64,000 bases of DNA, from assembly GCF_964355755.1 (NCBI RefSeq), contig NC_092677.1, forward strand, positions 25,035,175-25,099,174, read 5' to 3'. A program made the translations under genes and the position numbers. The notes beneath the pieces are model-generated. The model searched no databases, was not told the origin of the DNA, and saw only the letters and a list, made by a program, of their open reading frames with translations. Source of the DNA: Antedon mediterranea (lineage: Eukaryota; Animalia; Echinodermata). Every line of letters begins with the position of its first letter. Within the stretch, counting starts at the first letter, position 1. Of the stretch, positions 3,801 through 48,172 are shown one piece after another.

Positions 3801-6800
3801 GGTCTCGGGTCTCTGGTCTCTGGTCTCGGGTCTCTAGTTTGAAACACCCGTTTTTAACCGATTATTCTGTTTAACAGCACGCTAGACCCTAGATGTGCTA
3901 GATTTAAAGTACCGTATTTATTGAAAAAACGGCCTTGGCTGTTTATTGTTTAGATGGTTTTTAGGTGGACATTTATTGGAAGAAAGTTGTTTATTCGATG
4001 GGAGGGGGTATAATCTAATGGAAATAGACCCCCGATTATTCCATATGATGTTTCATGGGAGTGACATGGTCACCGTTTAGTTGAGGGGAATTTATTTAAA
4101 AAAGATCGCCGTTTATTCGGTGAGTGAACTTTGAGGTCAAATATCAAAAGTGATATTATTCTTCAAGTGTACAAAAATACATATATGACAAATTTGAGAC
4201 AAAAATTAATTCTTTTAAGACCAGTGGTTATCGAAGCATTGTCCTGACGCAAAAATTATTATTATTATTAGCGAACCCAGTCTTTACAGTAAATACAGGG
4301 AGTACTATATAATACGTTCGACTATCCTATGATCATGTGTGACAATCTTCAGTTTATACCAGGCTATATTTATGTTCAATCTTTTACTTTTGTTTACAAT
4401 AATGAATAGTAATTCGTCAAAGTAACGAATTAAAATATAGTTATTAATTCCTATTATACACTGTTGCAGAGTCAGGTTGTTGAATGGTCTGGGTGGTAGT
4501 TGTCCGTCCGGGGGGTAGTTGTTCTAAAGGGATAGTTTTCTGGGTGGTAGTTGTCCAGGGGTTAGTTGTCCTACGGAGGTAGTTGTCCTAAAAGATTATT
4601 TGCCCTCGGAGTATTGTCCAGGTAGGAGGTAGTTGTCCTACGGGGGAGTATTGTGTCAGAGGTAGTTATCCGCGGGGTAATTACCCGGGGGGGGGGTAAT
4701 TCTCCGGGGGTAATTGTCAGGGGTAATTGTTCCTAGGGGGTAATTGTCCCTAGGGGGTAATTGTCCGGGGGGTAGTTGTCCAGGGGTTAGTTGTCCTACG
4801 GAGGTAGTTGTCCTAAAAGATTATTTGCCCTCGGAGTATTGTCCAGGAAGTAGTTGTCCTACGGGGAGTATTGTGTCAGAGGTAGTTGTCCGCGGGGTAA
4901 TTACCCGGGGGGGGGGTAATTGTCCGGGGGTAATTGTTACTAGGGGTAATTGTCCGGGGGTAGTTGTCCAGGGGGTAGTTGTCCTAAGGGGGTTGTTGTC
5001 CTAAGGGGGTAGTTGTCCGGGGGGTATTTGTCCGGGGGGTAGTTGTCCTAAAGGGGTAGTTGTCCTAAGGAGGTAGTGGTCCAGGTGGTGGTTGTCCGGA
5101 GGGTAGTTTTCCGGGGGTAAATGTCCAGGGGGTGAATATCCGGATACGCGGGTTTAGTGATTTACCCGGGTAAGTTAGATACTTATCCACCAAAGTTGCG
5201 ATAATTAGTCCAGCTATGCCGAATGCCATATCTCAAATCTTCAACAAAATAATAATGATTAATAAAAAGTTGTATTTGTTATTAAGCATATTTAGGGCAT
5301 GTATAGCCTATAGTATACCATGTATAGTAAGACAATTTATTAACAGATAACATAATCCTGGTTTTTGGTTTACAGAGTGTCATATCTTGCGGGAAAACAA
5401 GCGAGAATTCTGAAAGATAGGCAACCAGAATTGAACATTACCGCTGAAGATATTCTGTGTGTAGAGATAGCAGGGCTCTGTCATGATTTAGGTATTATGT
5501 TTGACGATGCATCCTATAGTATAGCCTCAGAAACGGCTGATAATAATAAAATGGCAACAATATTTTTCTCTCCCTACCCCACCCCTTCTCTCTCCCCCAC
5601 TTTCTCCTCCTCTCCCCCCGTTTGCTATGATTACGAAGCCCGAATATTACCCATAGGCCTACAATATTTTTTATAGGCCATGGTCCATTTTCACACATGT
5701 TTGATGCGATGTTTATACCTCGTGTTCTTCCAAATTCCGAGTGGAAAGTAAGTTAAAGCATTTTACAATTGTTGTTATTCAATTCAATTCAATTTATTTC
5801 CACAATAATATAACATACAAACAGTGTACTAAATGCAATGAAGTAATCATGTGGGGGGAGAGTCATATAAGTCAGAAAGACTTTAAGTTTGACCCAACCC
5901 ATGATATAACATTATTAAATAAGAATACGAAAAAGAAAAAAAATATATATAATAAAAAACAAAGCTACAATTTCTATTTAAATCATATTATCCGATCTTA
6001 ACGGGTCTTATAAAATATATACATTATTGCACTACTTCTATAATGAAATCGAAATTAGTTAATTATTTTGGAATAACAATCTGTATAAAAAATTATAATT
6101 GATCTTCCATCCATCTTATATATTCTGTCAGTTATGTTGATTACGGTATGAAATGGCGTATGACGACTACACAGCGCAATCTCGGCAATACGTTTTTTAT
6201 GCCCATTCTCCCAATATATCATTTTTATTCAACAGCATGAACAAGCGTCCATAAAGATGTTTGATCATCTCGTGAAAGAAAACAATTTGGTAGAAAAGTT
6301 TGAATTACATAACCTGAATGAGAAAGATAGGATTTTCATCAAAGAGCAGATCTATATGGACAAGGAGAAGGTGAGTAGACTTTGAAAACAGCAACATAAC
6401 AGAGACAAATTTGTGACTGCAATTAATTTTTCAAATATTCATACGGTAGATCAAGAAGAAAGAATATGAAGGGCGACCGAAGAAAACATTTCTATACGAG
6501 ATTGTTGCGAACAAAGTGAATGGAATCGACGTGGATAAAAGCGACTATTTCGAACGTGATTGTCTCATGCTTGGTATCAAAAACAGTTTTGATTACAGTC
6601 GTTTCATGAAGTTTACTAAAGTCATAAAAGTGAATGACCAGTATCAGATATGTACACGAGACAAGGTAGATTATTACACCCTTCCAAACAATCTCTACAC
6701 GACCAGTATAATAACCGTTTGCAACCGTAGGCCCTACTTGCAACTAACATTCCTTGATTCGTTTCTCAGCATCATACATTGTCTATCCATACTTTATTCT

Positions 6801-10109: not shown

Positions 10110-11298
10110 TTTTATTTATTTTTTTTTTATTTATTAGGTATAACACTCAAAATGCAACAAAAGTTGAAAATCTTATGAGTTTACAAAAGGAACAACAAAA
10201 AAACCGAGATAAAGATATAAAACAATAGGCCTATACTAAAATTGACATAAAAACAAAACCAATTAAAACATCATACAAAAATATAATATGCACAAATTTA
10301 AAATTAATGATTATTATTAGATCTAATTAATAGAAATTCAGAAATATATACAAGTTTAAAATTATTCATTATTCATTATTTAAAAAGTCCACTTAAAATT
10401 TAAATTAAAAAATGTCATTACTTCCAAGGATCAATACAATTACTGTATTATTATTTATTTAAAATTCTTATTGCACTAGGAAGAGTTGAATTCCCATAAC
10501 GGTTAGTTCTACATCTAGGTACACAGTACTTGTTGAAGGAACGTAAAGTCCTCTCGGGCTTGATGTTCTCGGGTATCCACGAAGTGAAACGCCCAGATGT
10601 CACCAGACTGCTTCCAAATTTGGCAAGTACACCTAACCGTCTGTCTTGTAAAGATGTTATATTCAAGATTTCTAAAGTGTCTTGGTACCCCGTGTAGTTG
10701 TTATATCCGATGATGATCTTAAAGGCTCTTTTTTTAACAAATTCCAACTGGGTGCATTGCTGTTTAGTGATTGCTGAATGCCATAGAGGACTAGCATACT
10801 CCAGTAAGGGCCTGATGTACGTTATATAGGTAAAGACAAGATCATCCCGAGGTGCACCATATCGTTTTAAAATATATAACATAAACAAACGACGAGAGGA
10901 CTTGGATATCATTTCATTAACTTGATAATCCCATTTCATGTTCTTTTGTAATAAGACACCCAGTAACTTAACAACAGACTTCTCTTCTAGAACATTGTCT
11001 CCAATTGTTAACGGTACATAATTAGGTTCATTCCTCATAAAATGAACATGCATTACATTGCATTTAGCAGGGTTAGGTTGCATGTCATTCTCATCACACC
11101 AGGTCTGCAAAGTGCATCTAGATAACTCTGAAGAGAATGACTAACCAAAGTAGTATCACCACCTCGAGGTACACGATTAATTTCACCAATCGTCAAATCG
11201 TCCACGAACTTCCATCTCTCAGGAACGTGCTCTAATAGGCCATTTACCATCACCGTGAAAAGTATAGGCCCTAATTTGGTTCCCTGGGGCACTCCACA
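10110..11298 (-). mobile_element. 5'-truncated, frameshifted CR1/L2-group LINE (reverse transcriptase C-terminal half plus 3' UTR)
   Basis: ORFs 11053-11292 (PQGTKLGP...KFVDD) and 10451-11110 (W...NPAKC, KLLGV, YIRPLLEYASPLWH, RTNRY) overlap in different frames. The minus-strand A-rich tail is at about 10105-10135. Confidence 0.9.
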
Positions 11299-12614: not shown

Positions 12615-15600
12615 TAGTAGAGCAGTTAGTGACATGAGCTGTGCATTTTATTACCAAAGCATGAAACTTGGCACAAAGTTTCTTTAATATATATAGATTC
12701 AAAATATCAGGGGGTGCCAAGTGTCCAACGTCCGGTATGGCGGCCATCTTGATTTCAAAATGGCCACCATAAAAACAAAAAATGTTCATATCTTGGCAAC
12801 TATACACATTAGAGACTTAATTCTGGTCTCAAATTGTTCACAAACTATATATTGCTATTTGCTCTAATGAAAATTTTCGTCAAAAAATGACCGGAAATGA
12901 CGTTTCTTTCAGTTTGACCTTTGACCTCGTATTTGTATATCTCTGTAACTACTGGTCATTTTCAATCGATTTTGGTGTCATTTTGTTCAGAATAAATACA
13001 TTTATATTTGTAGTAATGAAACCTTTTCACATAAAATGACCGGAAATACAATTTATGACCTTTGACATTTATTTATTGATTTTTAATTATGTGAATATAC
13101 TGTATGTGGGTTTGTGTTGGTCTTAAATGCATCTAATTTTGAACTTTGACCTGATAGGCGTAATTATATTAAATGATTAATGGACTTAAATTGTATATGT
13201 TACATAAAATTGGTAAACAATGTGCTGGGTGGTACCATTAGTTCAAGGATGTTGGCACCTTCTGATTCGCTAAAAGTTTTAATAGTTTGACAGAGGAAAT
13301 AAGATACATGTTATGGAATACCGTAAAACCTCGAAAAGGTGATAGTATTCATGAGCTTCTTTTCGAGATAGACTGTATTTGAATGTCAAATGAATAGTAT
13401 GATGATCGTGTTTATATCAATATATTATTAATGACCTTACAAAGAACCCTTTATATTTCAACAATCAAGCCTCAGTTATTCTACAATTTATTGTTTTCCA
13501 AGTGGTAGGCCTATTTTGATTGCATCTTCTTTTTGTATGCTTCCTCGGTTAATATGGTCCTACCCCTCCTTCTTTGTCTGTAGATAGTCTTATACCCCCT
13601 TCTTTGTCTGTGGATGGTCTTATACCCCCCTTATTTGTCTGTGGATGGTCCTACACCCCCTTTTTTGACTGTGGATGGTCTTATACCCACTTCTTTGTCT
13701 GTGGATGGTCTTATACCCACTTCTTTGTCTGTGGATGGTCTTACATCCCCTTCTTTGTCTGTGAACGGTCTTACACCCCTTTATTTGTGTGTGGATGGTC
13801 TTATACACCCCTTTTTTTGTCTGTAGATGGTCTTACACCCCTTCTTTGTCTGTGGATGGTCTTATACCCCCTTCTTTGTCTGTGGATGGTCTTATACCCC
13901 CTTTCTTTGTCTGTTGATGGTATTACACCCTTTTTTTTGTGTGTGGATGGTCTTACACCCCTTTCTTTGTGTGTGGATGGTCTTACACCCTTTCTTTGTC
14001 TATGGATGGTCTTACACCCCTTCTTTCTCTGTGGATGGTCTTATACCCCCTTCTTTGTCTGTGGATGGTCTTATACCCCTTATTTGTCTGTGGATGGTCT
14101 TATACCCCCTTCTTTGTCTGTGGATGGTCTTATACCAACTTCTTTGTCTGTGGATGGTCTTACATCCCCTTCTTTGTCTGTGGACGGTCTTACACCCCTT
14201 CTTTGTCTGTGGATGGTCCTACACCCCCTTCTTTGTCTGTGGATGGTCTTATATCCCCTTCTTTGTCTGTAAGTGGTCCTATACCACTTTCTTTGTCAGT
14301 GGATGGTCTTACACCCTCTTCTTTGTCTGTGGATAGTCCTACACCCCCTTCTTTGTCTGTGGATGGTCCTACACCCTTCTTTGTCTGTGGATGGTCTTAC
14401 ACCCCCTTCTTTGTCTGTGGATGGTCTTACACCCCCTTCTTTGTCTGTGGATGGTCCTACACCCCCTTCTTTGTCTGTAGATGGCCTTACACCCCTTTCT
14501 TTGTCTGTGGATGGTCTTATACCCCCCTCTTTGTGTGTGGATGGTCGTACACCCCCTTCTTTGTCTGTGGATGGTCTTACACCCCCTTCTTTGTCTGTGG
14601 ATGGTCTTATACCCCCTTCTTTGTCTGTGGATGGTCTTATACCCCCTTTTTTGTCTGTGGATGGTCTTATACCCCCTTCTTTGTCTGTGGATGGTCTTAC
14701 ACCCCCTTCTTTGTCTGGACCCACTACTATGATTGATTAAATCAGACATTGTTTCTTGTATGATTAGGAGACCAAGACCTTCAAAGTGAAAGTCCACAGG
14801 TGGATGCCTAAAAAGGTCTTGTACAGAACAGTATATTGTAGGTCCATGTCACTAATTTGAGGATTACTTGAATAATTATATTGAGATGTCTTTTACGAAT
14901 TGATTTGGTTCGGATTTTGCTAAAAAATCAATGACTAGAGAAAATCGAGGAAAAGGATTCAGATGGTTTACAGCAAAGGCCCATTACCATAAAAATGGAG
15001 TACATTTTTTTAGATGCAACGAAAATGAACAAGAATTATCTGAGTTTCGGACTAATGAAAGTAGGTCTACTGCACAAATGCAGGATTAGTTTGTAGTAAG
15101 TACTTTGAAAGACGGTGTTCTCTTAACTCGTGAAAATGAGAACTTTCCGAACTTGTCTCATATGCAACATCAAAGAGGCCAACGAAAAAATATTTCCAAA
15201 TGGCATCTAACAATTCAATTCAACTTTTATTTCAGACAATTGTCCATATGGTATAATACATTACAAAAAAAAAAGAAAGGATGAAGGAGGAGAGAGGACC
15301 AAAACTTTTATCTAACGATTGACACATCACAGTTTAGCAAACAAGTCGGCATAGATGAGCTCAGTGATTGATGTTTCTCAGTGATCTGTCATACTTTACG
15401 CCTATCCTATCACATCAAAAGTAAAAAATTCAGAATAATTCCTGGTCATTTTTTCATTAAGTGTCATTTATTTCGGTAAAAAAAATTAAGTGCATTATAT
15501 CAATGTAAACCACATACAATATGTTCACATAATTATATATGTCAAAGGTTATAAATTGTATTTCCAGTCATTTTATGTGAAAATGTTTCATTACTACAAA

Positions 15601-25399: not shown

Positions 25400-28300
25400 A
25401 TGCCGAACCGTAAGCGAAAAACCAGAGGCTCTGGTGGTGGCCGTAAGTATGCATACATTCTGTACGCATAAGACTGACGTTTTTTTGTATTTTAAATTCA
25501 AATTGTGTCACCGAAAACAATGGTCGCATGATTTTAGATTTTAAAATATTACTGAATTGTATTGGAATTTGGTCCTGCCAAAAAGAAATTTGTCCTCTCC
25601 ACTAACTTTACTAAAGAGCTATTATCATTTGTTAATTGTTTACCTCTTTATATAGAACATAGTATGTGAGCGTGCACTGTGATCAATCACAATTACTTCT
25701 TACAAATAACTGGTGGTATAATGTATAATATAAATATTTTATGAATATGTTGTGATAATCGTACAGGGGTTGTTTATGTCTTCATTTTTATCATATTATT
25801 TTAGGAGGAAGAAAAAAACCGAAGGTTTTGAATGTAGGTATATTGGTTGATGTAATACTTTGCTTCCACTAGACGCAACGAAAGGACGTAACTTAGCGAT
25901 TTGACCAACCACAAACGATGAATTATTCAAACTGTGGCTTGTCATTGGTTAACTCCTTTGCGTTGCGTCTACGTCATTGCATTGCGTTTATGGGAACTAA
26001 GTTTAAACTAGGGCCTATTACTTTTCCAATCCTACATGCACATTTGTGTCTTTTTGTGTTACGAAGTTTGTGAAGGTAACGTTGTTGGAAGACGGACACA
26101 AAAGTTATGTAATCGACTCAAACTGCATCGATCACAAACCTTATACTAGTACAAAACATATGCCTATAGTAAGACCAAGAACCCCCAATAGTTACACACA
26201 ATTGTGACGTCCCGTCTAAATAGGCCTATAATCTAAAAACTATCAACAATACTTACGAATAGCCTGTGTATCAGCCGGAATTTTTCACCAAAACCTCTCT
26301 ACATGTGCTCAGCAAATATAAGTTACCGTAATTGATAATTTGTACCGTACTGTATTAAAACACAGTCTTGTATATGCAGACTAGGCATTTTACCAAGAAA
26401 TTAAATTTGAAAGCTGTTACCAACTAAGCTTTTTTTCCTGTAAAGTGAAATTGTCCAGCAGTTGCTGTTATTTCTTTCAGAAAATATTCAATGATCCTAT
26501 TCATGGAACTATTGAGCTACATCCACTGTGTGTTAAAATCATTGACACTGTGCAGTTCCAGCGCCTACGCAACATCAAACAGCTGGGTGGTTGTTATTTC
26601 GTCTTTCCCGGAGCTTCTCACAACCGATTTGAACATTCTATTGGGTATGGGTTGAGTCGTTGAAGAATTAGATTGTAATTTCAAGATTAAATTTGAAATT
26701 ACAGAAATAACATAAATCATTATGGTTTTTAATAAAATGATATTCAAGTTAGGTTGTTGAGCTTCCTCTATATTTATTATTGCTTACAATAACACAATGA
26801 AGGTTTTCTTAGGCATATATCAATAAAAAAATACAACAAAAGACAAAAAAAAAGAAAAAAAAAAAGAACAGAACTGATTTAAATGTTTTCAAAGAGTGAA
26901 TGATTTTAATTTGAAATTAAAAAAAAAAAAAAAACGTTTATTTTTGTTTTCATTTATTTGTAAAAAAACAGGATAACAATTAAAGTGGGGAAATGTACGA
27001 TAGATAGGATACTTATTTGATATGTCAATTCTACCAGTTTTGGTTGTGCGTGATTTGCCATTTTAAATACATAGAAACTAAAATGGCTTTAGCTTAATAA
27101 CGTTACCCATTAAAACCTTTCTTCTACAACATATCAATTTAAGCACTCAATTTCCTCATTTGAACCATCTGCCGACGAGTACACTTTTTCTGCAATACAG
27201 TATACACTAAGTAATTTAAGTTTCTCTTGATTCAGAGTATCGCATTTAGCTGGAAATCTGGTAAGATCTTTAAATGAAAAACAACCAGATCTGGGTATTA
27301 CAAAGAAAGACATTTTATGTGTAGAGATCGCCGGACTTTGTCATGATTTAGGTATGTATTCCTAACACATGGCTTTACAAGGAATATTATTGTTTATATG
27401 TGTTAATTATAATAGAATAACTTACTTTTATTTTGTTTATTTATAGGCCATGGTCCATTTTCACACCTGTTTGATAGAAAGTTCATACCTGCTATAGAAG
27501 GACAGAAAGTGTGGGAAGTATGAGAAATTGAAAATATTTAATTATCATATTCATAATTATAAAAAATCATACTGTATTTAATAATATGTTCATTATTATA
27601 AAACACATAGATAGTGCATTATTATTAAAGTATTATTTCAAAGATAAATTTCAATCAATTTCTTGTTTCTGTTTTAAATCTATACTAATATTATTACTTT
27701 GTAACTTTGTAGCATGAAGATGCGTCTTTGCAGATGTTTGATCACCTCATTAAACAGAACCCTGAAGTAGAAAATGAATTTAAGAGGCATTTGAATGATC
27801 AAGACAAAACTTTCATTAAAGAGTTGTTTTATGGCAAACTGAAAGTGAGTACTGTCTGAATTCTTAATCATTTTTTAATTGCTAATTGTCTATGGAAATA
27901 AAAGTAGTACAATTAAAATAACAAAAATCAAACTAAATAGGCCTACATTTGGTCATTATGCTATTATTTTATTATTTAAGAAATTCAAATTGGAAGAGAA
28001 GGAAATTCGAAAATATATTCTTGACCCATTGAAGAAAGTGAGTAAATTTATTAGTCACACAATTGTTATTATTCTTATACAGTGGACACCCGGGTCCCGA
28101 AAATAGAAACTTAGACACTGTCAGAAAAGCTTGGTTTCCAATAGAATAATTCTGCCGCAACAACGTTAGGAAATACTCTTCTATCAATGTAGCACAAGTT
28201 TAATAATCACGTTTGCGTCGTTTGCAAAGTAGAAAACGGTGACACTAAATTCGTTATGTTCTCACAGCACTTAGCGTCGATACGTCGCGTCTGCGTTCTT

Positions 28301-31300
28301 GCGTCGCATTCTAGTATAAACCAAGCTCAATTAGTTGTCCAGAAGTACCCCTTATGAAAATATTATGATGCACTGATTTAAACAGGAATAAAACAAACTG
28401 GTTTTTACGAGAGATGTCCGTTGAACTGTTTTGTTTACTTTTCCTCTAATGTTTAAATATGTATGTAATTATGTACTTTTAGTATTGTAGTTGAATTTCA
28501 TATTTGTTGTATTTTTTTATGATCATTCGTTTAAAATTCAAACAAACAAACAAGTGGTGTTACTACAAAAAGAGAAATAAGTTTGATCACATTTTATATT
28601 TTCTAATTGTTAAGAAATACGACTTGGGGGTGAATTCTGACACACTAATGAAAGTAAGTAATGTCAAACTGTAAAATTAAATAATATAATAAAATACATT
28701 TGTTTTTAATATTTTATGGTTATTATATCTAATATTTACAATTGATTGAATTGATACTACATATCAAAATATTGGGCTATATTAAAAATGTCTTTTAGTT
28801 GCAAAAAATAAAACTATATTATAATTATCTTTTTTAAGAATGTGAGAGAGGAAACAAATAAAGTGGTAAGTATTGACCCACTAAAGTGAGTACTGTAAAA
28901 TCTTGTGAAATTAGATACGGTAGAATTTACTGGTTAGGCTAAGTAGTATATTGATACTGTCAATTAATTACATCTTGAATATATTTGAATGTGTATTGTG
29001 GTACTGATAGCAATAAATCATATAAGTTGTTTAAAACAGGTTCAGTATTGTAAATTTTATTCTATTATTCAATTTTTAAAGAAATATGAAATGGAAGAGA
29101 GGTACATTATAAATGTGATTCTTGACGAAATGAAAGTGAGTACTGTTAAATTAAATAATGCATAGGCTTATAAATTAATTTGTAAATTATTGATTTGAAT
29201 ATTTTAATGTCTATTGTGGTGGATAGCACTAAATATCGAATAACATTTATATAATCATGGTGCTTTACATAAATTATAACATTGCTTGAAATTAAGTGTC
29301 TTCACTTGTTAATGTTATAGGCAGATTATTCCATATTTTGAGTCCGTTTTAAGATTACTTTTAAAATTTATAATTCACGTGGTTTGTTGCTATTTCAAAT
29401 TGTTGATATTCTTTTAAAGAAATCTGAATTGAAAATAACACCGGAGAAAATTAAGGAATTGATTATTGAGCCACTGAAGGAAGTGAGTACAGTAACGTGT
29501 GTTATTGTTTTTTTTATATAATGAATGTAATACTGTATTACACAAATAACCAAACTAAACCATTCCTAAACTACCGGTACATGTTTTCTTTACAGTACAG
29601 TAGGCCTACAGTTTTATAAAATTAACTATTATTGTTAGTGACACTAAAATAAATAATTATGAATTAAAAGACGTTTGTTATATAATTTCAATACAAAATC
29701 AACGACGTTGACGTAGAAAACAAATTATTAGGCTAATTAAATAATTATCCCAGGATTAGACCCGGACAACAATAACGTTTTTTACCCTTTCACACCCTCT
29801 ACCACCAAATCATGTATCCAACTAGTTCTACGTCGTCTTTCTAAATTGTACATCTTACCAATCAGGTGTATTTTGGATATAATATTTTTAAAATGATTAA
29901 TTTAAAAAAAAATCAATCAAAATATTATCAGTATCTTGATTCAGTGGATATTATTTTTCAGAAATTTCCATACACATATAAAGGCAGAAGTAAAGAGAAA
30001 CACTTTCTGTACGAGATTGTTGCAAATAAACGCAACGGAATTGATGTTGATAAATGGGACTACTTTGCACGAGATGGTCATATGCTTGGATTCTCAAACT
30101 GTTTTGATCACAAGCGCTTAATGAAACTTGCAAGCGTTTTGACAGTGAAAGACGGTGAAAGTAAGCAGATATGCTTCCGAGACAAGGTAAAGTATATAAA
30201 GAATGGAGTGGATGTAAGTGATGAATGTTGAAATTAGTGTAAGGATATCTTGAGTAAGGGAATATGGATTTGTATGAAGAATTTCAGCTACGGTACATCG
30301 AGGAAATTAGGGGTTATATGCATGGTGATTTGTAAGTAAGAATACCCTTTTTGGGTTATGCGATGTACTATTTCCTTTTAATTGTTTTGTTTATTCAGTC
30401 TAAAATCAGTAGTAGAAATCTTTAAAAAAAAAAGTAAAATTCTCATTTTTAGGAAGTGGGAAATTTATATGATATGTTTTACACGCGACATCTTCTTCAT
30501 AGAAGAGCCTGTCAGCACAAAGTAAACTTGGTCATTGAAAGAATGTAAGTTTGGTATAGGCTAAATAGTCTATTCCTTATACTCTAAATAATTATACTCA
30601 TCATCAACTGACAACTGATCAAACAATTACTATATGGTAATTTTTTTAATCTCAAACATAGAAAAATAAGAAATTAACCTGTGAAATTTTAACTTTAAAG
30701 TATATGAACAAAAAACATGAAAGTGTTCCAAACTAAAACAAAACAAGAGTGTAAAACTGGAAAATGAGAAAATCATTTAAATGAGAATCCTCCCATTTTT
30801 ATTGAGTGGAAAAAAAAAATAATAATCCTTTACTTCACTGCAATCTCAGTAATCTTAGTGAGTGGACATATTTTACTATTGAGAGTGGTTTAAGCCTGTT
30901 TTTCACTAGGCAAATGTATCCCTCAATATTTACTATCTCACCCAGTTTCAGAACACATTTTAATAGTTTTATGTTATATTTAGGATTGTTGAAGCATTAG
31001 TTCTAGCCAATGAACATCTAAAATTGGAATATAAAGATGGGTAAGTAAAGCCAGTTTCTACTATGCAAATATATTTTCATGTTGAAAATGAAACAAAAGA
31101 TGGAAATATAAATTTACATGTGCAAAAATCAACGATCAATTTTGAGTGATTAGAATTGCCTGAATAAAAGCAAAACAGGCCTAAAGTGCCGGTCATAGGA
31201 ATATTGTTGTGAGAAGGTATTACATTTAGTATAGATTTTAATACTAAATCATTATTAGGAAAAACATTATACACTCTAATAATTTCAGAGAGACAACAGT

Positions 31301-34026
31301 AAAAAAGAAAATGTCGGAAGCTATTGATGACATGAAAGCTTATGAGCAGTTAACAGACAATGTACTGTATGATATATTGAAATCATTAGATACAAACATG
31401 GAAGAGGCTCGCGATATGGTAAAAAAGGTGTTTGAGCGGAAGCTGTATAAATGTATTGGAACTTATGCTGTTCCAAAAAGCAATGAAGAAGTAGTAAAGG
31501 TAAAATCTACATATTATATGCAAACTAGGCCATGTTTTACAAATTACTGTAGACTCTTGTTCTGCTTCATAATAATATGTATATGTAACCAGGGAGATGT
31601 AAAATATTATTTTACATCTCCCTAATGTAACTCTCCATACTCGCTAAACGATTATGAGTTGACACGATCTTCACTGGTATCTACCATGGATTGTTTGTAA
31701 ATATTTTGTTAGTAGGCCTACATGAATGTGTGTTTAGTAGTATGAGTAACCTATAGGCTATGTAAGGTGATTGTGTTTTGTTTTTTAATTATCTTGACAC
31801 ATTTCTCAAATGTTGTTTCTCTACCTTGAGAAAAGTCTTCAATCCTTGTTTGCTAATTCCTTTAAAAGTCTAGCTAGAGTTCAATTTCGTTTGTGCTTTC
31901 AGTCATGGTGGTCTATTTAATGATAGAGAAAATACACAATTTAAATGGTCACGTAATTATAAATTGTTACACAAAAAACAAATTGCTGTACAGCAACAAC
32001 AAATTAAAGCAAGTTGAAAATGAAATAAAGATCTTTACATTAAAATGCTTGTAATAAAAAAACATTGTTATGGCATTTTTTTTTCTTTTCTCAAATATAA
32101 TAAGATAGAATTGACTGATAAACATTATTTAAAAAAAAATCCTTTAGTTTTTTTTTATCTACAGTACGATTGATCAATAATAATTCAAAAATGTATTTTT
32201 GTTTCTGTAAAGAAATCTGATGACGAGATTAAGGAAGAGATCGTTGCACGTGCACAGCCCGGCGGCCAACTCGAGAAATTGAATTTAATTGTTGAAGTAA
32301 GTATAGTACAGTGTGGTGGTCCTATTACCGGTGGTGGTGGTGGTGAAATAAACAATTATGAAACACAAAACCATTACTGACTGATCTGAAAACAATAGCT
32401 TTAGAGATACACAATTGTTTTATGCAACTTTGTATTTTATACAATATCATCTATAAAATATGTAGTTAAATGTTTTAGATGTACTTCTAATTTTCCTAAT
32501 AGTACAGGAAAAAGGGTATTACTAAAAGTAATGATTGAAACCACCATCTCAACAGCCAACATCGTCGTTTAAGCAAAATAATACAATCCATTTACACCCA
32601 CATGCATTTAACCTTTATAGGCTTAAGGCAGGCATACACAGTCATACATTTGTCTGTCATACACATCAAACAATGTATGATCAGACAAAGTCTGATCATG
32701 TATGCCTAAACCAGACTTAGTCTGATTGCCATTTTATGTGTCTGTCAGTGTCTGATGAGAGTAGAATAAAGACAGATATATAATTACAATAATTAATTAT
32801 TGGATTGTATTCACTAACAAATCAAAATCGAATTAATGTAGGACTGAAGACTAATATTTATGCATAGGCCTATATAATAATAAATGATCTACGGTAGTAC
32901 ATTATATTAGTTTTTTGTTTCTGTTGCACCTACAGTTTTTATTTTTAGATTTATGTAGGCGACATGGTGCTCAAGTTTATTGTGTCTTGCCACAACTTGA
33001 AGTTGTAATGTTTATAAATTAGGCCTATCTAGTCGGTTCTTTTATTTTTAAGATTTTAAACACTGGTTTTATAGTGTAAAGTCTACTGATGTCAGTGATG
33101 GTGTTGAATATTCTGTCGGAGCTCTAATTCATAAACTCAGAGATAATACATTTACATTTAAAAAAAAAAATGTTATTTTTTAGCGTGTTAAATATGATTA
33201 TGGGCAGAAAAGAGAAAATCCTATTGAATCTGTTTACTTTTACTCAAAAGAAGACAATACAAAAGCATTTACAATCCCTAAACATAAGGTACTGTACTGT
33301 AAAATTATTTTGTTAAATAATACCGTAATCTTTGAAGATTAGCATTTTCTAATCAGTACATTACATTTTAATTAAATGTAACATTTCTATGTCGCCTAAC
33401 AGTAGTTCATTCCTATCATGTCTAGGATTTTAACAAGAAATTAGATTTGTTCAGAACACAAAATTGGGTTATTTGATTTTTTAACAGGTGTCCAGCATGC
33501 TACTGGATCACTTTCATGAAATGGAAATACGTGTTTACTGCAAAGACGAAAAGAAAAAAGACATTGCAAAGAAAGGTTTTGAAAAATGCCTTAAAAAATG
33601 GGTCAGTATGTGTTTTTTAACTGTTTTTTTCTCCTCACTTTTACTACTTTGGTTATCAGATAAAAAATTACCAAAAGTATGTATTTAGTTGACTTAATCA
33701 TGAGTGAACAGGATAAAAATACAAGGAGATCATAACAATATATATTTTAATATTCCCAATTATGAATTTATATAATGATAATTATTTCTTTCCGTACAAT
33801 TTAAAAACAAAAACAGTATAATGAGAATTTAAATATACCCACCTTTAGAATTATATTAGTAATTCTGCTTGACCACATTATCAGCTACCTTATTTTTTTT
33901 ATATGCTTAACTTACAGTAAGCTTGTTAAACTATTGACTTAAATATCATCATGTTTCTGAGTAAATAAATTGTGGTTTTTTTTCTAGCCTCCACATAAGC
34001 CATGTCAAACGTGCAAATCTACTTAG
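25400..34026 (+). CDS. SAMHD1: SAMHD1-like HD-domain triphosphohydrolase, copy B (SAM-less); about 493 aa core, up to about 573 aa with micro-exons
   Basis: Core exons: 25400-25442, 25805-25833, 26481-26644, 27236-27351, 27447-27517, 27713-27844, 29962-30186, 30453-30544, 30984-31040, 31289-31499, 32213-32296, 33184-33288, 33488-33601, 33988-34026 (1482 nt, open). Intact HNRFEHS, CHDLGHGPFSH, HE, DVDKWDY and RKLYK motifs. The first two exons and the last exon are less certain. Confidence 0.92.
25858..26003. mobile_element. MITE family B copy (diverged)
   Basis: TTCCACTAGACGCAACGAAAGGACGTAAC...TTGCGTTGCGTCTACGTC...TGGGAACTAAG. Confidence 0.65.
27981..28037 (+). CDS. SAMHD1-B micro-exon a (57 nt, [19 protein letters not shown])
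   Basis: T-rich tract plus AAG acceptor, GTGAGT donor, phase 0-0, open frame. Confidence 0.75.
28128..28326. mobile_element. MITE family B-related copy between micro-exons a and b
   Basis: AGCTTGGTTTCCAATAGAA...TTGCGTCGCATTCTAGTATAAACCAAGCT. Confidence 0.6.
28615..28653 (+). CDS. SAMHD1-B micro-exon b (39 nt, [13 protein letters not shown])
   Basis: TTAAG acceptor, GTAAGT donor, phase 0-0. Confidence 0.65.
28839..28865 (+). CDS. SAMHD1-B micro-exon c (27 nt, NVREETNKV, using the proximal donor; the distal donor at 28886 would shift frame)
   Basis: TTTTTAAG acceptor. GTAAGT at 28866 preserves frame. The homologous ATTGACCCACTAAA|GTGAGTACTG end gives 47 nt. Confidence 0.45.
29082..29135 (+). 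CDS. SAMHD1-B micro-exon d (54 nt, [18 protein letters not shown])
   Basis: TTTTTAAAG acceptor, GTGAGTACTG donor, phase 0-0. Confidence 0.75.
29420..29482 (+). CDS. SAMHD1-B micro-exon e (63 nt, [21 protein letters not shown])
   Basis: CTTTTAAAG acceptor, GTGAGTAC donor, phase 0-0. Resembles the human SAMHD1 helix FIKEQIVGPLE. Confidence 0.8.
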
Positions 34027-37676: not shown

Positions 37677-37771
37677 CGGGAATCCTACTGTACATACAAC
37701 CTTTTTTTGATGCCTCAAATTTTATTTTTATACCCAGCCTGCTTAAATAAAATGTGATTTTTTAATAGAGA

Positions 37772-40700
37772 ATGGAAGAACCAGCAAAGCAAGTGGTGTT
37801 GACCGAATGTGAAGTAACCTCTGACAGCATTGAAACAGCTGATGGTGCCGAAGTCCTTACATTAGACAGCGCTATTGCACAGTTGGTAGCATCTACTAGT
37901 GAAGAAGTTCAACAAGCTACTGTAGTGGTTGATGCAGCCCAAAGCAACCCCGATGATGCAGAATTTGATCTCGAAGAAGATGGAAATGAGTCAGAAAGAG
38001 AAATACTCTCGACCGAGATTTTGTTTAGATGCAAACTCTGCAACTTCCATGGTACCTCTAAGATGGAAATTGCTGACCACTTCATATCAGATCATACGGC
38101 CATGGAAATGGTTGAATCTTCATCCAAACGTGACACTACAGTAAAGAATGTAGATTGTAATGAAGAGGATGGCGATGGTGGTAAACAAACGCGTAAAAGT
38201 GGTCGTAGCAATGCCGGAATCAACAGAGCTTCTGACAGATCGCCCGAGTCGCTGCCGAAAAAATGTAATCGTAAAAGAAAGAAAACAAGCGATGAAGAAT
38301 CCGCAGATGTTTCAGAAACAATGTATATACAGGGATTCAAAACATTGGATGAATGGGAAGCCAACTGGAGAAAGAAAAATATCATTACAGAGGTCCACTG
38401 CCCTGTTGATTGGTGCACTGGGATGATGCCGGAAGAAGAAGTGGAAATGCATGCCAAATGCCACATTAAAAAACATAAAGGGTTTCAATGTTCTGAATGT
38501 TCTTTTAATCATAAATATTGGAGAGATATGAGGCGCCATCTGTACAGTAAACACTTCAAAGAGCAGCGTTTGTGGCGGTGTGACCAAGCGAATTGCGATT
38601 TAGCTTTCTCTACTCTTGGTGATCTTCGTAAGCACATGAAACACAAACATGTGTTTTCAAACCCAGATGAAATTGTTGTTGTTGGAGAATTGGATCAAGA
38701 CGATAACATAGAAGTAGAGGCCATGCCAGTTGTTAAGAAGTCACGTCGTAACTATTATCCACGGTTCCAAGCCTGCTTGTTGTGTGGAATTAAGTGTAAA
38801 GCCAAGGAGGAGACTACATTCCATGAGGGGAAACATTACGACGACACCAATAAAGACATTTTGGTATGTACCGAATGTGACGTTGTGTTCCACTGTGAAC
38901 AAATAGACGAACTGAAAGAACATGTCAAAATTGAACACAAAAGGATGACGCATTCACATCGTTGCACTGTATGTTTCTTCTCAACAGATCGTCTGTTTGA
39001 TCTAAAAAAACACATGTGGACGCACTCTGGCCAAAAGAACTTTGTCTGCGATAAATGCGGAGCAAGAGCATCAACTGCTTACAACCTGCGTGTACATCAT
39101 AGTCGCATACATGCTAATGAGGACGACAAGAAAATATCTTGCAGTCTTTGTGATTTTCGTTGCGCCCATCCGGCCGTATTGAAGGACCATCTACGCCAAG
39201 TTCATCAACTTCTAGCTAGTGGTAAACTGTATCAACGAATCACGCCAATGAAAACATATAAATGCTCTGTGTGCGATTACGTCGGCAAGAAAGAGAGCAG
39301 TTTGCGGTACCATATGAGGATTCATTCTGAGAATCGGCAGTTCAAATGCATGCTGTGTGCTTATGCTAGTAAAACAAAGAACAACCTTATCCTACACATG
39401 AGAACACACAATGGTATGAGTCCACTTAAGTGCCCTCAATGCGACTTTAGAGGTACAGTATAATATTAATATTGGTTTTTATCTTTAAAATATTTTTTGA
39501 AATTTTTAAGAGTTTTTATCATTTTTATAATTTTTTTATATATACAAATACACATTTACCGTATTGTTCATTTTTTACAAACAAAAATTAGAAAAACATG
39601 TTACATTACAGTATTTACTCGTATTATTCTGCAGTTACTGTAACTACATATTGGTTAATCTTTATTTCTTGCAGTAAAATATTTGACATGATCCCTTTTA
39701 TGTAAGCATTTTTTTATTATTTTGTTTTGTTTCTAATTAACAGGTGCCACAAACAAGATTATTCAAGAACACATGATGAGCAAACACACGCGTGAAAGAC
39801 CTTACAAGTGTACGATATGCGGATGGGACACTTGCTACAGCGGTAATATGTGGAAACACATGGACATGCACCGTAAGAAAATGGGTCTGAAGTTACAAGG
39901 TGAACAACTGGTTCTAGTCAGTGGAGGGAAAGATAACGCAGGCCTTCTCACCAAAGATGGCTGCAGCAAGATAATTGTCGCAAGGTATGAATCTCCGAAA
40001 CTGAAGTTTAGGAAACGAACAAACGCTGCAGCTACGACGTTTTTGATCCAGCAACTTGATGGAACGTTTATCCAGACGTCTGCTGGTGATACTCTAACTA
40101 GTGGCGAAGCAGTGCAGGTGACAACTGTAGACGCTGCGGAAACATCACAAGATGAAATGACTGGTCCTTATAACAAAGTTGCCAATTTGTCCAAGTCTGG
40201 TGAAGACGATGGTGATAATACATCCAGTTTTCCCACAGAATCTGAGGAGCAAACGATGGTTTTAGTCTCTGGTGTCGACTCATCTGGTACACCAACTGAG
40301 ATGACCTATGTTCAGGGTAGCTCACAAGCCGTCACTGCTGCTGACAGTGGTTCTGAAGGTAATGACGCAGGAAGCATTCGGTATGTCTCACAAATTCTTT
40401 CGCAAATGGCTGCACAGATTACACAATCAACTAACAATCCACAAGAAATTGGTTCATCACCATATCTACCAGATGGCCAGGTTCCGACATCGATAACTAT
40501 CCAGTCGGCAGACCAGCTTGAATCTCAACAGCTTGGAGAAGAAGGTACTACAATTCTTGTCCAAAGTGATAACCCGGAGGTCAATGAGGCTGGCATGGTG
40601 ACAATGCAAATACAAGGCGATGGTCAACAATCTTATGTGATACCGGTCAAATTCCAAGAAGGAACTGGCAATTCAGACCAGCAAGAAGTGACCTATGCTA

Positions 40701-41887
40701 CTGTACGTATTAACCAAGACGGGAGACCTGAAGAAGGTACTGTTGTCCATGAAGGGATTGTCACCGGTGACAACCAGACCACCTACATGACCGTTTTGGA
40801 TCAAAGCTCAGAACATCAGCAGCAAGGAACCGGTGATGTGAGTCTCCATGACGCCGATGGTCAAGAGATTCAAACAACGTATATAGTTGAGATGGATGAA
40901 GCTGAAGCTGCCAAGCTTCATGCAGGAGGAATGGCAACAGTTGCCAGTGGAGAGGAGAGCCAAACCGCATACATATCTGTTGAGATTGATGGAGCTACAA
41001 TTTCTGCCGAACACATGAGTGAAAAAGAAAAGGAAATTACTGAGCATCTGAAAGGAGAACTTGCTGAACAATTGACGGAGGAAATGTCTAAGCAGTTGAA
41101 CAAGCCAATAACAGAGCAGCAATTGAATGAGCCAATAACAGAGCAGCAATTGAATGAGCCAATAACACAGCAGCAATTGAATGAGCCAATAACAGAGCAG
41201 CAATTGAATGAGCCAATAACAGAGCAGCAATTGAATGAGCCAATAACAGAGCAGCAATTGAATGAGCCAATAACAGAGCAGCAATTGAATGAGCCAATAA
41301 CAGAGCAGCAATTGAATGAGCCAATAACAGAGCAGCAAATGAATGAGCCAATAACAGAGCAGCAATTGAATGAGCCAATAACAGAGCAGCAAATGAATGA
41401 GCCAATAACAGAGCAGCAATTGAATGAGCCAATAACAGAGCAGCAAATGAATGAGCCAATAACAGAGCAGCAATTGAATGAGCCAATAACAGAGCAGCAA
41501 ATGAATGAGCCAATAACAGAGCAGCAATTGAATGAGCCAATAACAGAGCAGCAATTGAATGAGCCAATAACAGAGCAGCAAATGAATGAGCCAATAACAG
41601 AGCAGCAATTGAATGAGCCAATAACAGAGCAGCAATTGAATGAGCCAATAACAGAGCAGCAATTGAATGAGCCAATAACAGAGCAGCAAATGAATGAGCC
41701 AATAACAGAGCAGCAATTGAATGAGCCAATTACTGAGCAAATGAATGAGCCGGTAAGTGAGCAGTTAAATGAGCCAGTAAGTGAGCAGTTGAATGAGCCA
41801 GTAAGTGAGCAATTGAATGAGCCAGTAAGTGAGCAATTAAATGAACCATTGACAGACGATGCAGGAACAACTGAAGTGGAACTATAA
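37772..41887 (+). CDS. C2H2 zinc-finger protein 1, about 1274 aa, with acidic/Gln-rich C-terminus and 9-aa repeats
   Basis: Exons 37772-39452 and 39744-41887. The phase-1 intron splits the finger CPQCDFR|GATNKIIQEHMMSKH. More than a dozen CxxC...HxxxH fingers with linkers such as HSGQKNFVC and HTRERPYKC. Confidence 0.93.
41099..41850 (+). repeat. Coding minisatellite: 23 x 27 bp (NEPITEQQL/M) followed by about 5 x 24 bp (NEPVSEQL-type)
   Basis: Unit AATGAGCCAATAACAGAGCAGCAA(T/A)TG, read directly from the sequence. Confidence 0.97.
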
Positions 41888-43037: not shown

Positions 43038-44004
43038 TTACAACGCGTTTCACAACGCGTTCAACCCAAAAAACGCCACACAAAATCACACAAAATCATT
43101 TATCACAGAGGGCGGTCTTCAGTTTTGGAAATTTTTTATTTTTTTTAAAAGTTTTTTATATTAAAAAATATATAAAACGTACAATTAAATACCACAATAA
43201 CATTAAATAATATGTTCGCATGTACGCGATAACATTGTATATCATAAAGCGATACCGGGGCTTACCGGGGTCGAGGATTATTATGACCCGTTCTCTCACG
43301 TCCACGGGGCTCTGCTGCCGGGCGTAGATTAATGTAAAGAGTCTGTCGTCGATAAATAAATAAATAAATGTTAACGCATAAAAAAGGTAAATAATATAAG
43401 CCTACTACTTAACTAGCAAGTAGAGCGTTAGATAAATATGCCTTATATAGAGCAGAGTAGTACTCATCTCTTATTGCAGTTTTTAGGGCATTAGTTAGGC
43501 CTAGAAAGAGAGAGGAGTTCTATGCTAGGCCCTATTTTCTGTTTTTGGTGGTGGTGTGGGCGCGGTAACGGGACGATTCGGCCCTGAGACGATTCGGCCC
43601 GGGACGAGAGACGATTCGGCCCTGGAACCGTGTGGACCTCCATTCGTTGTTGACTGGCCATGGAAACTGACTGATGTAGTAGGCAAAGCCTAAGCCTAGC
43701 CATAACTGCATGGTTGGTATCAATACAATTGTGCATTTGCGTTTAATTAAACATTATTAAGCCTAACTTCACTAGCTAGGCCTAGCCTAGATTAAATTAA
43801 TTGATAAATTAATAAGAAAGGCAAACTCATCATAGTTTAACTTTCTTTATGTTTATATATCTTATTTAATTACAGTCAGTACTTTACCATTTCTATACCA
43901 TGATCAATCTGTAGAAGAACAAAGTTAGCATGAATTATCAATCAAATGTTTTTCATCTACTACTTACAGATATATATGTGTGGAACATTTTTTATTGAAC
44001 AAAG

Positions 44005-47000
44005 ATGGACGAGCAAGTAGTACTTAAACTTTCAAGACCACTAAAAGTTACGAAAGACACCTGTATAGCATGTGGTGCAACACAGTGGAAATGCTTCAAC
44101 TCTATTCATTCCGTTCGCAGTAAAAGTAAAAGAATACACCAGTTATTACAACTTTATTGTCATGTAAATATTGCAAGGGGCGGGATGTGCAATCCCTGTG
44201 AGCGAGTGCTTATAAAAATGCATCGTAAAATAGAAAAGTTTCGCAATAGTTGTCACGAAACACTTGCGAAAAACAGACTAGTTACAAAAGAAAACTTATT
44301 AGGAATAGGTATTACTAATAAAAAGAATGAAAAATATGCAAGAGATAACATTGTTTGGCCCGGAAAAGAAAACCTGTTTGTTGCCCTATCGGTTTGTTGT
44401 AACTTACCTTCTGCTCTGCATCATACAATCACAACTGAAAAGTTAAATCATTCATCAGAGTACATCAAAGAGATGGAATTGAACGATGGTTCCATCTGTC
44501 GGAGGGATCATAGCTATGTCAGACATTCCCCACGGATATGTGTGAAAGCAGTGTGTTATGCAAAACCTGTGTTGAATCCATTGACTATTGAAAACCGTAA
44601 GGTGGTACATCCGTTGGCAAGGCTTGCTGCTATGAAAATAAGAGAGATGATGGGGGTAGGTTTACTGGGGTCTGCTAGACTATGCAGGCAAGCAAGTGCA
44701 GATGCCATTAAACCTCAAGATAGAAATTTAAATAAAGCAGATATGAAGATGCAAGCAAACGAGGAAGGATGCAGTGAAAATGGGAAATCTAATTTCAGGT
44801 AGAAAATAACAAATTTGTATTATATTATATAGTTATTAATTAAATGTCTATTACCAAACTGGTATTATTTTATACATTGTGGTTTGGAGGTTGAGATTAC
44901 TTACCAATCCCAGGGTTCCTGGTTCAAATCCTGTATTGCCAGCCAATCGAGTGCCCTATATGTCATAGCCTCATGTGTTGTGACTTGGTTTAGAAAGCTT
45001 AAGGGTTTCCCATTATAGGTATATACCGTTTATGCTCTGGTATATTCCCAGCCACCAATAACATGAAATTGTGCCGACTTTTGGGGGTGGGGGATTATAC
45101 CTGAGGAAACCCTGGAAAAAAATTATTGGTAACCATTTCTTGTAAAAACGCATCAATACTGGGACTGTATACCTGGGGATATTCCTGATTGTGAAACCAG
45201 ACATAAAGTAAGGGCTTATATTAGCCCGAAGTGGGATTATACCCAAGGATATACGGTACATATACAGTATAACACAATCGGCAAAGAACATTAATTCTAA
45301 ACCGCCCGGTGATATTCTGAAACTTAATTATTTAATTTGAAACAATAAGATGAAGAAATCTGTGAGAATGAAAAAAAGTCGCCCCAACCGAGATAGTCAC
45401 ATAACATCGGCAGGGGTTCGAGGCTCACTCACTCCATGGTTCTGGTGTTAGAACGAGTCTTCTCGGATAAGGACTATAAACCGTAGGTCCAGTGTACACA
45501 ACTTGCTCGTGTGCACTTTAAAGAACCTAGTACATCTTTCGAGACGAGTAGGGGGTTACCCCGGTGTATTAGTACATCACAGCCACTGATCACCAACTGG
45601 GCCCTCTGGGAGATCAGTCTTTGACTGAAGAGGTCACCCAGTATAAAGATCAAACAAACAAAAGAATAAATAAAAATCACGAAAAACAATGACTAATAAA
45701 AGAGAATTTTTTTTTTACAGTTGTACATCCGTAAATGAGATTCTAAAAAATGCAGATTGGCTATACAGATGTGATTTGGAAAATAGCAATATAGAAAAAC
45801 GAAAACTTGATATTTGTCAACGCAAAGCAATAAGCAATATTAGAAGGCCTACACGTAGCGATGACCCAAAGCCGAAGAAGTCAAAGAATATAGCAACAAC
45901 TAGTCCTGTCGTAATTAATTCCAAAGATATCATTCTATGGGAATCCGAGTGGAGAAAAAATAATGCTAGTGTTTACTACACATGCCCGGTAGCTAACTGT
46001 TCGGAAATGGTTCTTGGCTCCGAGCGCATAATGCACATTGATGCGCACTCTGTGGAAGGTTTTTGCTGTCCATCGTGTCAATTCAAACACGATAAGTGGA
46101 CTACAATGCGTGATCATCTACGCTGCAATCATTCAATGCCGAGTCAACTGTATAATTGCGATCAAGATGGTTGCAACGAGGTGTGCATTTCGTTCAAACA
46201 TTTACGTCAACACATTTTATACGTTCACCAATTTGAAAGCGCTCTGCAATCCGATAAGAACGCTATGAAATGTTTTGATCGGAAAGAGATAGAAGAAGAG
46301 ATGATGTTGAATGAATTGGTTTCCCACGATCTATGTTCTGTTTGCGGTATGGCATGCAAAGTAGAAGATCTACCAAGCCACCAGACAAATCATGCGGTTT
46401 CTGGATGCGCATTGTTAAAATGTTTAGCATGTGATTCTATGGTTTCTGCTGATGAGATTAAAAACCATGTATTGTCAATGCATCGAAAATTAACGTATCT
46501 TTATCAATGCGAAAAGTGTGAATTTTCGTCGCAAACATCTGCGGGTCTTCAACGCCACACAGGTATAAAACATGCGAATACAATTCTTTTAGTATGCGAT
46601 AAATGCGGAAAGGGATTTAAAACGACTTCTGCTTTAAGTGTGCATCATAAACGCGTTCACGCGACGGAAGATGAGAAGACGGTGTTGTGCTCCACCTGCG
46701 GATACCTTTGTGCTCACGAAACCCTCTTGAAAGAACACATCCGCAAAGTGCATAAAAACCCGTCATGGCGCCGTTTTAAATGTCATCTTTGCGAACATTT
46801 CAGTCTGAGAGAGAGTAGTCTACAACGCCATATGCAGATGTATCACAGTCGGGCTAATGACCGGCAGTATAAGTGTTCTTACTGCTCATTTGCTGGAAAA
46901 ACCAAAGACACGTTGGCTCGCCACGAATTGCGACACAAGGGTTCCGCTCCATTTGTTTGCCCTCATTGTAGTTTTAAAAGTAAGTACTAATGTTCTCGAT

Positions 47001-47818: not shown

Positions 47819-48172
47819 TTAGCAAAACTCTTGTTTACACAGTTTACTTGTGTTTTTCTAATCGATGGTATATTTTTTATTGTAGCGGTAGTTTTATGCA
47901 TGTATACAGATAAATGCCGAAGCGTTATTTATTTATATGAATCGGAGCTGTTTATATTAAAAATATAAATCATAAAATAACTTATCTTAATTATAAATAA
48001 TAATTTTTGCCAAATATATTTATAGAAATGTGTAATAGGCCTACAACAGTAGTAGGTGGTACAGTAGAATGATTTTAAATACATTTTTTGTATTCATAAG
48101 ACCTAAAAAATGTGTTTGCTGTCCTCTATCATTGTCCTTAGCAGCCAGCACTAAAAACAACAAACAAACAAT

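Follow-up and report, generated by a model that had tools for sequence, protein, structure and literature searches.

We analysed a window of 64,000 nucleotides (nt) from the feather star Antedon mediterranea (NCBI RefSeq assembly GCF_964355755.1, contig NC_092677.1, positions 25,035,175 to 25,099,174 of the forward strand; coordinates below count from the first letter of the window). The window contains two SAMHD1-like genes, copies A and B, both located on the plus strand by tblastn. One intron of the HD domain of copy B carries an array of five short segments, here micro-exons a to e, which are very likely real exons. We propose, with a probability of about 0.5, that the array is built of exons that are spliced in together and encodes a helical knob, variable in DNA, whose diversity is maintained by immune-type selection. 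Duplication and mutation of units in DNA, and not exon skipping, is the likely source of diversity in the array. SAMHD1 is usually regarded as a conserved enzyme encoded by a single gene, with its variable parts at the termini, and both the variation of the insert between copies and its recurrence across animals appear to be undescribed.

Five probable micro-exons in one intron of copy B

The intron that follows the FIKE helix is 79 nt long in copy A and 2117 nt long in copy B. An original prediction made from the letters alone had placed five duplicated, frame-preserving micro-exons in the longer intron and had proposed either an 80-residue helical-repeat insertion or up to 32 isoforms produced by skipping. 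The array and its surroundings are as follows.

27713..27844, plus strand: upstream (parent) exon, 44 residues (142-185), ending in the core helix FIKELFYG
27779..27784, plus strand: codons TTT AAG (Phe-Lys), lying 60 nt upstream of the donor; putative origin of the AAG acceptors
27981..28037, plus strand: micro-exon a, 57 nt, residues 186-204, predicted helix 1
28082..28346, no strand assigned: intronic insert of ~265 nt with inverted-repeat arms, missing in the second copy of the array (joint 28081>28347 in runs X2, X4 and X5)
28615..28653, plus strand: micro-exon b, 39 nt, residues 205-217, first half of predicted helix 2
28839..28865, plus strand: micro-exon c, 27 nt (proximal donor), residues 218-226, second half of predicted helix 2
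28866..28895, plus strand: relic 3' end of unit c, with an ancestral-type donor at 28886; aligns with the ends of a, d and e
29082..29135, plus strand: micro-exon d, 54 nt, residues 227-244, predicted helix 3
29420..29482, plus strand: micro-exon e, 63 nt, residues 245-265, predicted helix 4; the unit most like the ancestral helix
29962..30186, plus strand: downstream exon, 75 residues, with the metal ligand equivalent to human D311
6371..6449, plus strand: matching intron of copy A, 79 nt, without micro-exons

Positions, lengths and translations of the five segments were confirmed, as were their AAG acceptors, GT[AG]AGT donors and phase 0-0, and every segment is free of stops in frame 0. Segment c is in frame only with its proximal donor, which is closer to the U1 consensus than the distal one (9 versus 7.5 of 11); use of the distal donor at 28886 would yield 47 nt, one base short. 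Six GTRAGTA donors lie in the intron, whereas their frequency in the remaining window would predict 0.29 (Poisson P 6e-7). When the intron was scanned for any AG..GTRAGT segment of 24-75 nt that is in frame and free of stops, under rules fixed after the segments had been seen, exactly these five were returned; on 1000 dinucleotide shuffles the same scan averaged 0.1 segments and never gave more than 2, so that none of the 1000 reached five. All five micro-exons use AAG acceptors, compared with 1 of 11 other internal acceptors checked, and the introns between the units measure 136-577 nt.

All five units are joined in the RefSeq model

The RefSeq protein XP_071957720.1 (Antedon mediterranea, 573 residues) is 100% identical to the downstream exon of copy B and holds micro-exons a to e in order, each directly after the last, at residues 186-265; the exon structure with all five micro-exons is already present in RefSeq. 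Its cluster contains no other protein and its record bears no isoform tag, while models from Anneissia and Lytechinus appear as X1/X2 pairs. The annotation pipeline would need junction reads to call exons of 27-63 nt with AAG acceptors. Among the best 120 of 1283 matches no other protein was identical over the 75-residue downstream exon, and in a search with the insert region only XP_071957720.1 covered the insert among the best 120 of 1364 matches. A search for short proteins with the insert returned none at E 1 or better among 31 candidates, and a metagenome scan with a 29-base pattern gave 0 matches.

Joint inclusion of all five micro-exons is favoured, on indirect evidence, over 32 isoforms because a single isoform is annotated, the five lengths all differ and are all multiples of three, c has a better donor that is in frame, and b and c together form one helix. 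Of the two outcomes that had been proposed, the 80-residue insertion is the better supported, given the single RefSeq isoform, the predicted helix shared by b and c, and the constant inserts of two wrasse genes described below. The combinatorial cassette of up to 32 isoforms gained no support from the sequences and annotation examined.

The insert is predicted to form four helices outside the active site

AlphaFold2 modelled the whole protein from 101 sequences with a mean predicted local distance difference test score (pLDDT) of 88 and folded the insert into helices at 191-206, 212-223, 231-246 and 252-266 (pLDDT 47-76). Prediction of the insert alone from its single sequence gave the same four helices, with a pLDDT of 79.6 in the best model. 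In both models b (13 residues) and c (9 residues) make up one helix, and the helices are amphipathic in the diverged units (moments 0.35-0.44). A fold search with the insert reached a best Z of 7.2 for a common helical bundle and matched no specific family, and an atlas search gave leads only (best feature score 0.84, template modelling (TM) score <0.5).

The insertion junction maps to human SAMHD1 residues 277-285 and aligns to loop 278-283, in keeping with the predicted position in a flexible loop before the W/Y-x-YKGR motif; the parts of the human structural study available to us describe this loop as disordered in both open and closed structures (PMC7045340). Loops of 19 to 57 residues are found in 211 of 212 motifs, and low-complexity inserts occur here in other species. 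Non-homologous inserts of ~23 to 170 residues were seen in the same loop of rabbit and hare (P0084, P0087, P0089), pipefish (P0210, P0211), sea cucumber (P0261) and a cichlid (P0299), which marks this loop as a general site of insertion. Three SAMHD1-like proteins (P0276, P0300, P0358) have helical or repeat inserts elsewhere in the HD domain.

The predicted core superposes on human SAMHD1 (4bzc_B) with a root-mean-square deviation of 2.0, a TM score of 0.88 by target and a Foldseek E of 3e-42. The catalytic core had been expected to be intact, and the alignment agrees in both metal ligands and allosteric residues. H76, H115, D116 and D295 correspond to human H167, H206, D207 and D311, described as metal ligands in the same partly available source (PMC7045340). 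Allosteric residues D137, Q142, R145, N119, R333, R352, K354, N358 and K523 are identical in alignments to human chains, and H364 of the dimer-dimer interface is Tyr in copy B. In the substrate pocket Q149, L150, R164, K312, Y315, D319, R366 and Q375 are kept, and Y374 is replaced by Cys360; at this position Cys occurs in 21 of 332 motifs and Tyr in 291, and Cys is also present in copy A and in both wrasse genes. Judged by its metal ligands and allosteric residues, copy B is likely still a nucleotide-activated deoxynucleoside triphosphate (dNTP) triphosphohydrolase, the substrate preference of which has possibly been shifted by the Cys in place of human Tyr374.

A second, diverged copy of the array in the same animal

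DNA runs of one sample contain the exact reference sequence together with a diverged copy that differs from it by 44 letters and 11 gaps over 27710-28054. In run X4, extra contigs were found at the parent exon (one), at the acceptor region of a (three, one of which has a joint reaching back 136 nt) and at d (two), whereas b, c and an e-like donor end are each present once in the second copy. It therefore appears to hold about eight units versus five, if all lie on one haplotype, the contigs covering neither their order nor their completeness. One d-like unit, read by hand, measures 57 nt (3 longer) and is stop-free.

Among the differences counted (40 of 124 rows, chosen by depth, plus one more), 22 exon codons are touched, of which 18 change the residue and 0 become a stop; the residue changes in 7 of 8 codons in the units and in 11 of 14 in the core exons. 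None of the 12 listed indels (of 46) falls within the units. Relative to the median for contigs of unrelated loci, the depth of reference-sequence contigs is 0.50 in X4, 0.39 in X2 and 0.42 in X5, and in X4 the second copy has a depth of 159 versus 147 for the reference. Depth of contigs gives only a rough estimate, and repeats in the contigs used for comparison may have inflated their values. On the simplest reading the second copy is likely a very different allele of copy B; alternatively, it could be a paralog present on one haplotype. Among the matches listed no annotated protein corresponds to the second copy, and it is unaligned at likeness 90 over most of 30018-33800. The exon at 26444-26669 also has a diverged copy in X2 and X4, for which 20 differences are listed; its DT-x-QFQRL motif contains Pro, a residue that most relatives have as well.

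Origin of the units

Units a, c, d and e are related to one another in their exon interiors (z 2.2-5.4), and b is related only to a (z 2.9). Including flanks, a and d are 73% identical over 89 nt (E 4e-8), and a 38-nt repeat is common to two introns. Micro-exon e matches the family profile of the parent helix with a score reached by 3 of 300 shuffles, and HMMER aligns both the end of the parent exon and e to human residues 268-277. At the DNA level the units resemble the end of the upstream exon weakly (z 0.1 to 2.4; b -0.4). Of the likeness to that exon end that had been claimed for all five units, the part concerning e stands at the protein level, and the part concerning a, b, c and d, which gave no protein score, does not; the evidence nonetheless supports a derivation of the units from the upstream exon's 3' end by serial duplication, with e showing the link to the parent.

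In the parent exon the codons TTT AAG lie exactly 60 nt before the donor. Every unit begins after a T-rich stretch that ends in TTAAG or TAAAG, and the units are or were 47-63 nt long, except b. Unit c is out of frame at its old donor (28886) and has a better in-frame donor 20 nt upstream. We suggest that the TTT AAG codon pair may have supplied the AAG acceptors. In this mechanism, the last 60 nt of the upstream exon would have been copied together with the donor to give the first unit, the exon's own Phe-Lys codons would have become its acceptor, with phase 0 and a length divisible by three coming free, and later units would have arisen by tandem duplication of exon plus intron. If the codons gave the acceptor, phase and length were inherited, and the symmetry of the units is therefore weak evidence for modular skipping; only later in-frame length changes are then informative on this point. 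An origin in which the units start with a copy of the start of the downstream exon was set aside, with one weak hint in its favour (z 3.2, 1 of 15 acceptor comparisons).

Parallel inserts in fish and a frog

Of 283 distinct spans, 7 carry between two and seven repeats of the parent helix at the same site; the spans were drawn from the best 150 of 16,617 matches in 1.84 billion representatives, plus earlier matches. Repeats were found by a profile scan, in which the crinoid units themselves do not score, and the parallels are annotation models, not demonstrated transcripts. The repeats belong to two genes of the wrasse Labrus bergylta, to Electrophorus, to Chanos and to the frog Hyperolius. Within each wrasse gene the insert is the same in every annotated isoform (6 of 6 in one, 4 of 4 in the other), and the insert is kept in four Electrophorus electricus models and two Chanos models; one E. 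voltai model and one 109-residue fragment were left unscored.

These paralogs resemble copy B in repeating the same helix at the same site, on long branches and with the core intact; their units, compared as protein models only, are about 36-54 residues long, versus 9-21 in copy B. In a tree of 42 rows from which the insert columns had been removed, the trait needs four changes, and electric eel and milkfish join at support 99. Because unit lengths differ, we favour separate origins, and the helix repeats of wrasse, eel and milkfish, frog and crinoid probably arose independently. Such recurrence at one site would mark a recurring site of immune-type innovation.

Copy B is a fast-evolving SAMHD1 paralog

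Coding sequence of copy B spans 25400..34023 on the plus strand, as placed by tblastn of XP_071957720.1 (P0006; 573 residues) on the window. Copy B shares with SAMHD1, an HD-domain dNTP triphosphohydrolase (PF01966), the fold, the four metal ligands, both allosteric sites and the position of the loop. It differs from canonical SAMHD1 in lacking the SAM domain and the tail that bears the Thr592 site, in the Cys at Tyr374 and in its 80-residue exon-coded insert. A Pfam scan of XP_071957720.1 found the HD domain only, with no N-terminal SAM domain; SAM was found in XP_071959324.1 (P0194). The end branch of copy B in the tree is 0.8 long, against a median of 0.24. These sequence comparisons place copy B as a SAM-less, fast-evolving SAMHD1 paralog, SAMHD1-like rather than canonical.

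Copy B was considered as the SAMHD1 ortholog and rejected, as it is XP_071959324.1 that groups with Anneissia, at support 100. That protein was also rejected as copy A, since tblastn on the window places it outside as a third paralog. Antedon mediterranea thus has at least three SAMHD1-like genes: A, B and the canonical XP_071959324.1.

Contigs of run X1, which was taken as RNA by guess, contain three GT-AG joints of copy B (30544>30984, 31039>31288 and 33286>33486; depth 4.5-8), and because of these we consider copy B to be spliced. A further X1 joint, 30479>31310 (depth 19.4), was not counted as skipping; by eye it is compatible with copy A or with a further paralog. Two small 5' exons of copy B (25400-25442 and about 25805-25833) encode a basic N-terminus resembling a nuclear localization signal in place of the SAM domain, and at 32213-32296 lies an 84-nt phase 0-0 exon, likewise with an AAG acceptor. 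Copy A extends on the plus strand from about 850 to between 9400 and 9900, with SAM-like 5' exons at 854-988, 2212-2292 and about 2430-2478. It has DKSDY instead of DKWDY and Cys at the Tyr374 position, and an identical RefSeq protein was not found among the matches listed.

Weighing the explanations

In the reading that we prefer, a jointly spliced and DNA-variable knob, all five units would be joined in mRNA as in the RefSeq model and would add four amphipathic helices (80 residues) at the position of human loop 278-283, outside the active site. The second copy in the same animal would represent a version with more units and many amino-acid changes, and selection by pathogens or retroelements would keep the knob diverse as a binding or shielding surface. 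An immune role of the crinoid protein is suggested by knowledge of the family and by one oyster report, the accessible part of which describes a SAMHD1-like gene as marking the herpesvirus response (bioRxiv 10.64898/2026.05.15.723513). Several points weigh against this reading. The binding partner and the immune role are inference only, and RNA support behind the RefSeq model is deduced from the usual behaviour of the pipeline. Contigs of X1 span no micro-exon junction, and none lies on the array or its flanking exons (likeness 90 and 80; depth 4.5-8); at this low depth, X1 is evidence neither for nor against skipping. The uniform AAG acceptors, rare among the other acceptors checked, leave room for skipping. 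Amino-acid changes are in excess in the core exons too (11 of 14), a pattern also expected under relaxed constraint, and the second copy could be a paralog rather than an allele. The other four single-sequence models of the insert scored at pLDDT 57.6-69.3, and insert blocks in the whole model at 47-76. As for the parallels, a tree that holds all six together was rejected marginally (p-AU 0.043), and the starred branches alone are compatible with one origin.

It is possible, though we hold it to be rather unlikely, that the array is a passenger: all five units would be spliced into a loop that tolerates extra sequence, in a relaxed paralog in which unequal crossing over changes unit number and selection acts as a filter for frame only. 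The range of loop lengths and the low-complexity inserts elsewhere fit this, as do the long branch and the frequent changes in core exons, and the likely mode of origin gives frame automatically. Yet amphipathic helices are kept in diverged units and are predicted to fold together, the insert shared by electric eel and milkfish at support 99 implies long retention, the catalytic residues are intact, and two very different copies coexist at allele-like depth. Regulated or stochastic skipping of single units, giving up to 32 isoforms, seems to us improbable. It would be served by phase 0-0 and lengths that keep any subset in frame, by weak AAG acceptors and by introns of a size that permits any joining, and low expression could hide minor isoforms from annotation; but the one annotated isoform includes all five units, parallel wrasse inserts are constant in 10 of 10 isoforms (seen at the protein level), and the symmetry follows from the mode of origin. 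With b and c forming one helix and four helices packing together in the prediction, most subsets would likely break the fold.

Two further explanations are very improbable. Tandem homologous exons are, in the portion of the literature available, the usual substrate of mutually exclusive splicing of the Dscam kind (PMC9013439), with one unit per transcript; here, however, the RefSeq model joins all five, unit lengths differ more than twofold, the introns seem too long for steric exclusion, and no recurring docking-type inverted repeat was present among the 25 longest of 51 pairs. Decayed, unspliced duplicates that misled the annotation pipeline would agree with the lack of micro-exon junctions among the X1 contigs seen at low depth. 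Against this, five lengths stay in frame and stop-free after heavy divergence, c has a frame-restoring donor and the second copy an in-frame variant, indels are absent from the units among the 12 listed (of 46), and no homologous protein able to guide the model was found among the matches listed. A wider reading of the knob is speculative: the site would be a hotspot at which crinoids, fish and frogs build a helical domain by repeating a core helix, and in the feather star an exon accordion with long-lived alleles under balancing selection would present a variable pathogen-facing surface, possibly with skipping too.

If the knob is real, a repeat-built, exon-coded, copy-variable domain within a catalytic fold, at which fast-evolving paralogs would have arrived more than once, would be an unrecognised interaction surface, and the array would point to a route, open to testing, that leads from the codons of an existing exon to new exons and domains. 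Proteins with 0, 2, 4, 6 or more extra helices form a natural series for probing the function of the loop. Even as a passenger, the array would still be a clean example of exon birth with frame selection.

Comparison with other exon arrays

Micro-exon genes (MEGs) are mostly made of micro-exons. Like them, copy B has a run of short symmetric exons, five of 27-63 nt in phase 0-0; in schistosomes, MEG exons of 3-81 bp are described between longer introns in the accessible text (PMC10526429). MEG products are secreted and diversified by alternative splicing, whereas in copy B the array accounts for 80 of 573 residues inside a cytosolic or nuclear enzyme. A signal peptide in MEGs contrasts with the basic N-terminus of copy B (by eye), and copy B has no recorded alternative forms. 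The copy B array is not a MEG.

Tandem exon duplication is described, in the sections available, as the source of the homologous tandem exons used in mutually exclusive splicing (Dscam, TEDS; PMC9013439). Copy B shares homologous tandem exons with these; its units differ in that they seem to add to one another, copy the end of an exon only in part and likely recruited their acceptor from codons. In NBPF/Olduvai repeats, so far as their available description goes, unit number varies in DNA, as it appears to do in copy B. The same is true of the sea-urchin SpTransformer elements. In contrast to both, the repeat of copy B is a single helix that stems from the core of the enzyme itself and sits in a catalytic-domain loop. 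By analogy, the array would work like other exon-coded repeat arrays. Among the papers listed by searches of the open literature, none was seen to describe this insert or repeats at the same position. In the accessible portion of a medaka paper, samhd1 and a samhd1-like gene appear only in an appendix table of introgression outliers and not as cases of balancing selection.

Other features of the window

Downstream of copy B, a C2H2 zinc-finger gene at 37769-41887 (plus strand) has a long 11-residue tandem repeat (LNEPITEQQ-type) near its end, and a second C2H2 zinc-finger reading frame lies at 45674-46990 (plus strand). Between them, at 43999-44802 (plus strand), is a 267-residue Cys-rich frame with no Pfam match. 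Two reading frames at 48155-49469 (plus strand; 131 and 170 residues) belong to one unnamed gene, the second having no Pfam match. Between copies A and B, at 10451-11298 on the minus strand, lies a frame-broken remnant that by eye resembles the reverse transcriptase of a long interspersed nuclear element (a 229-residue piece has no Pfam match). Simple tandem-repeat arrays occupy 3100-3860, 4480-5150 and 13550-14740, two of them within an intron of copy A.

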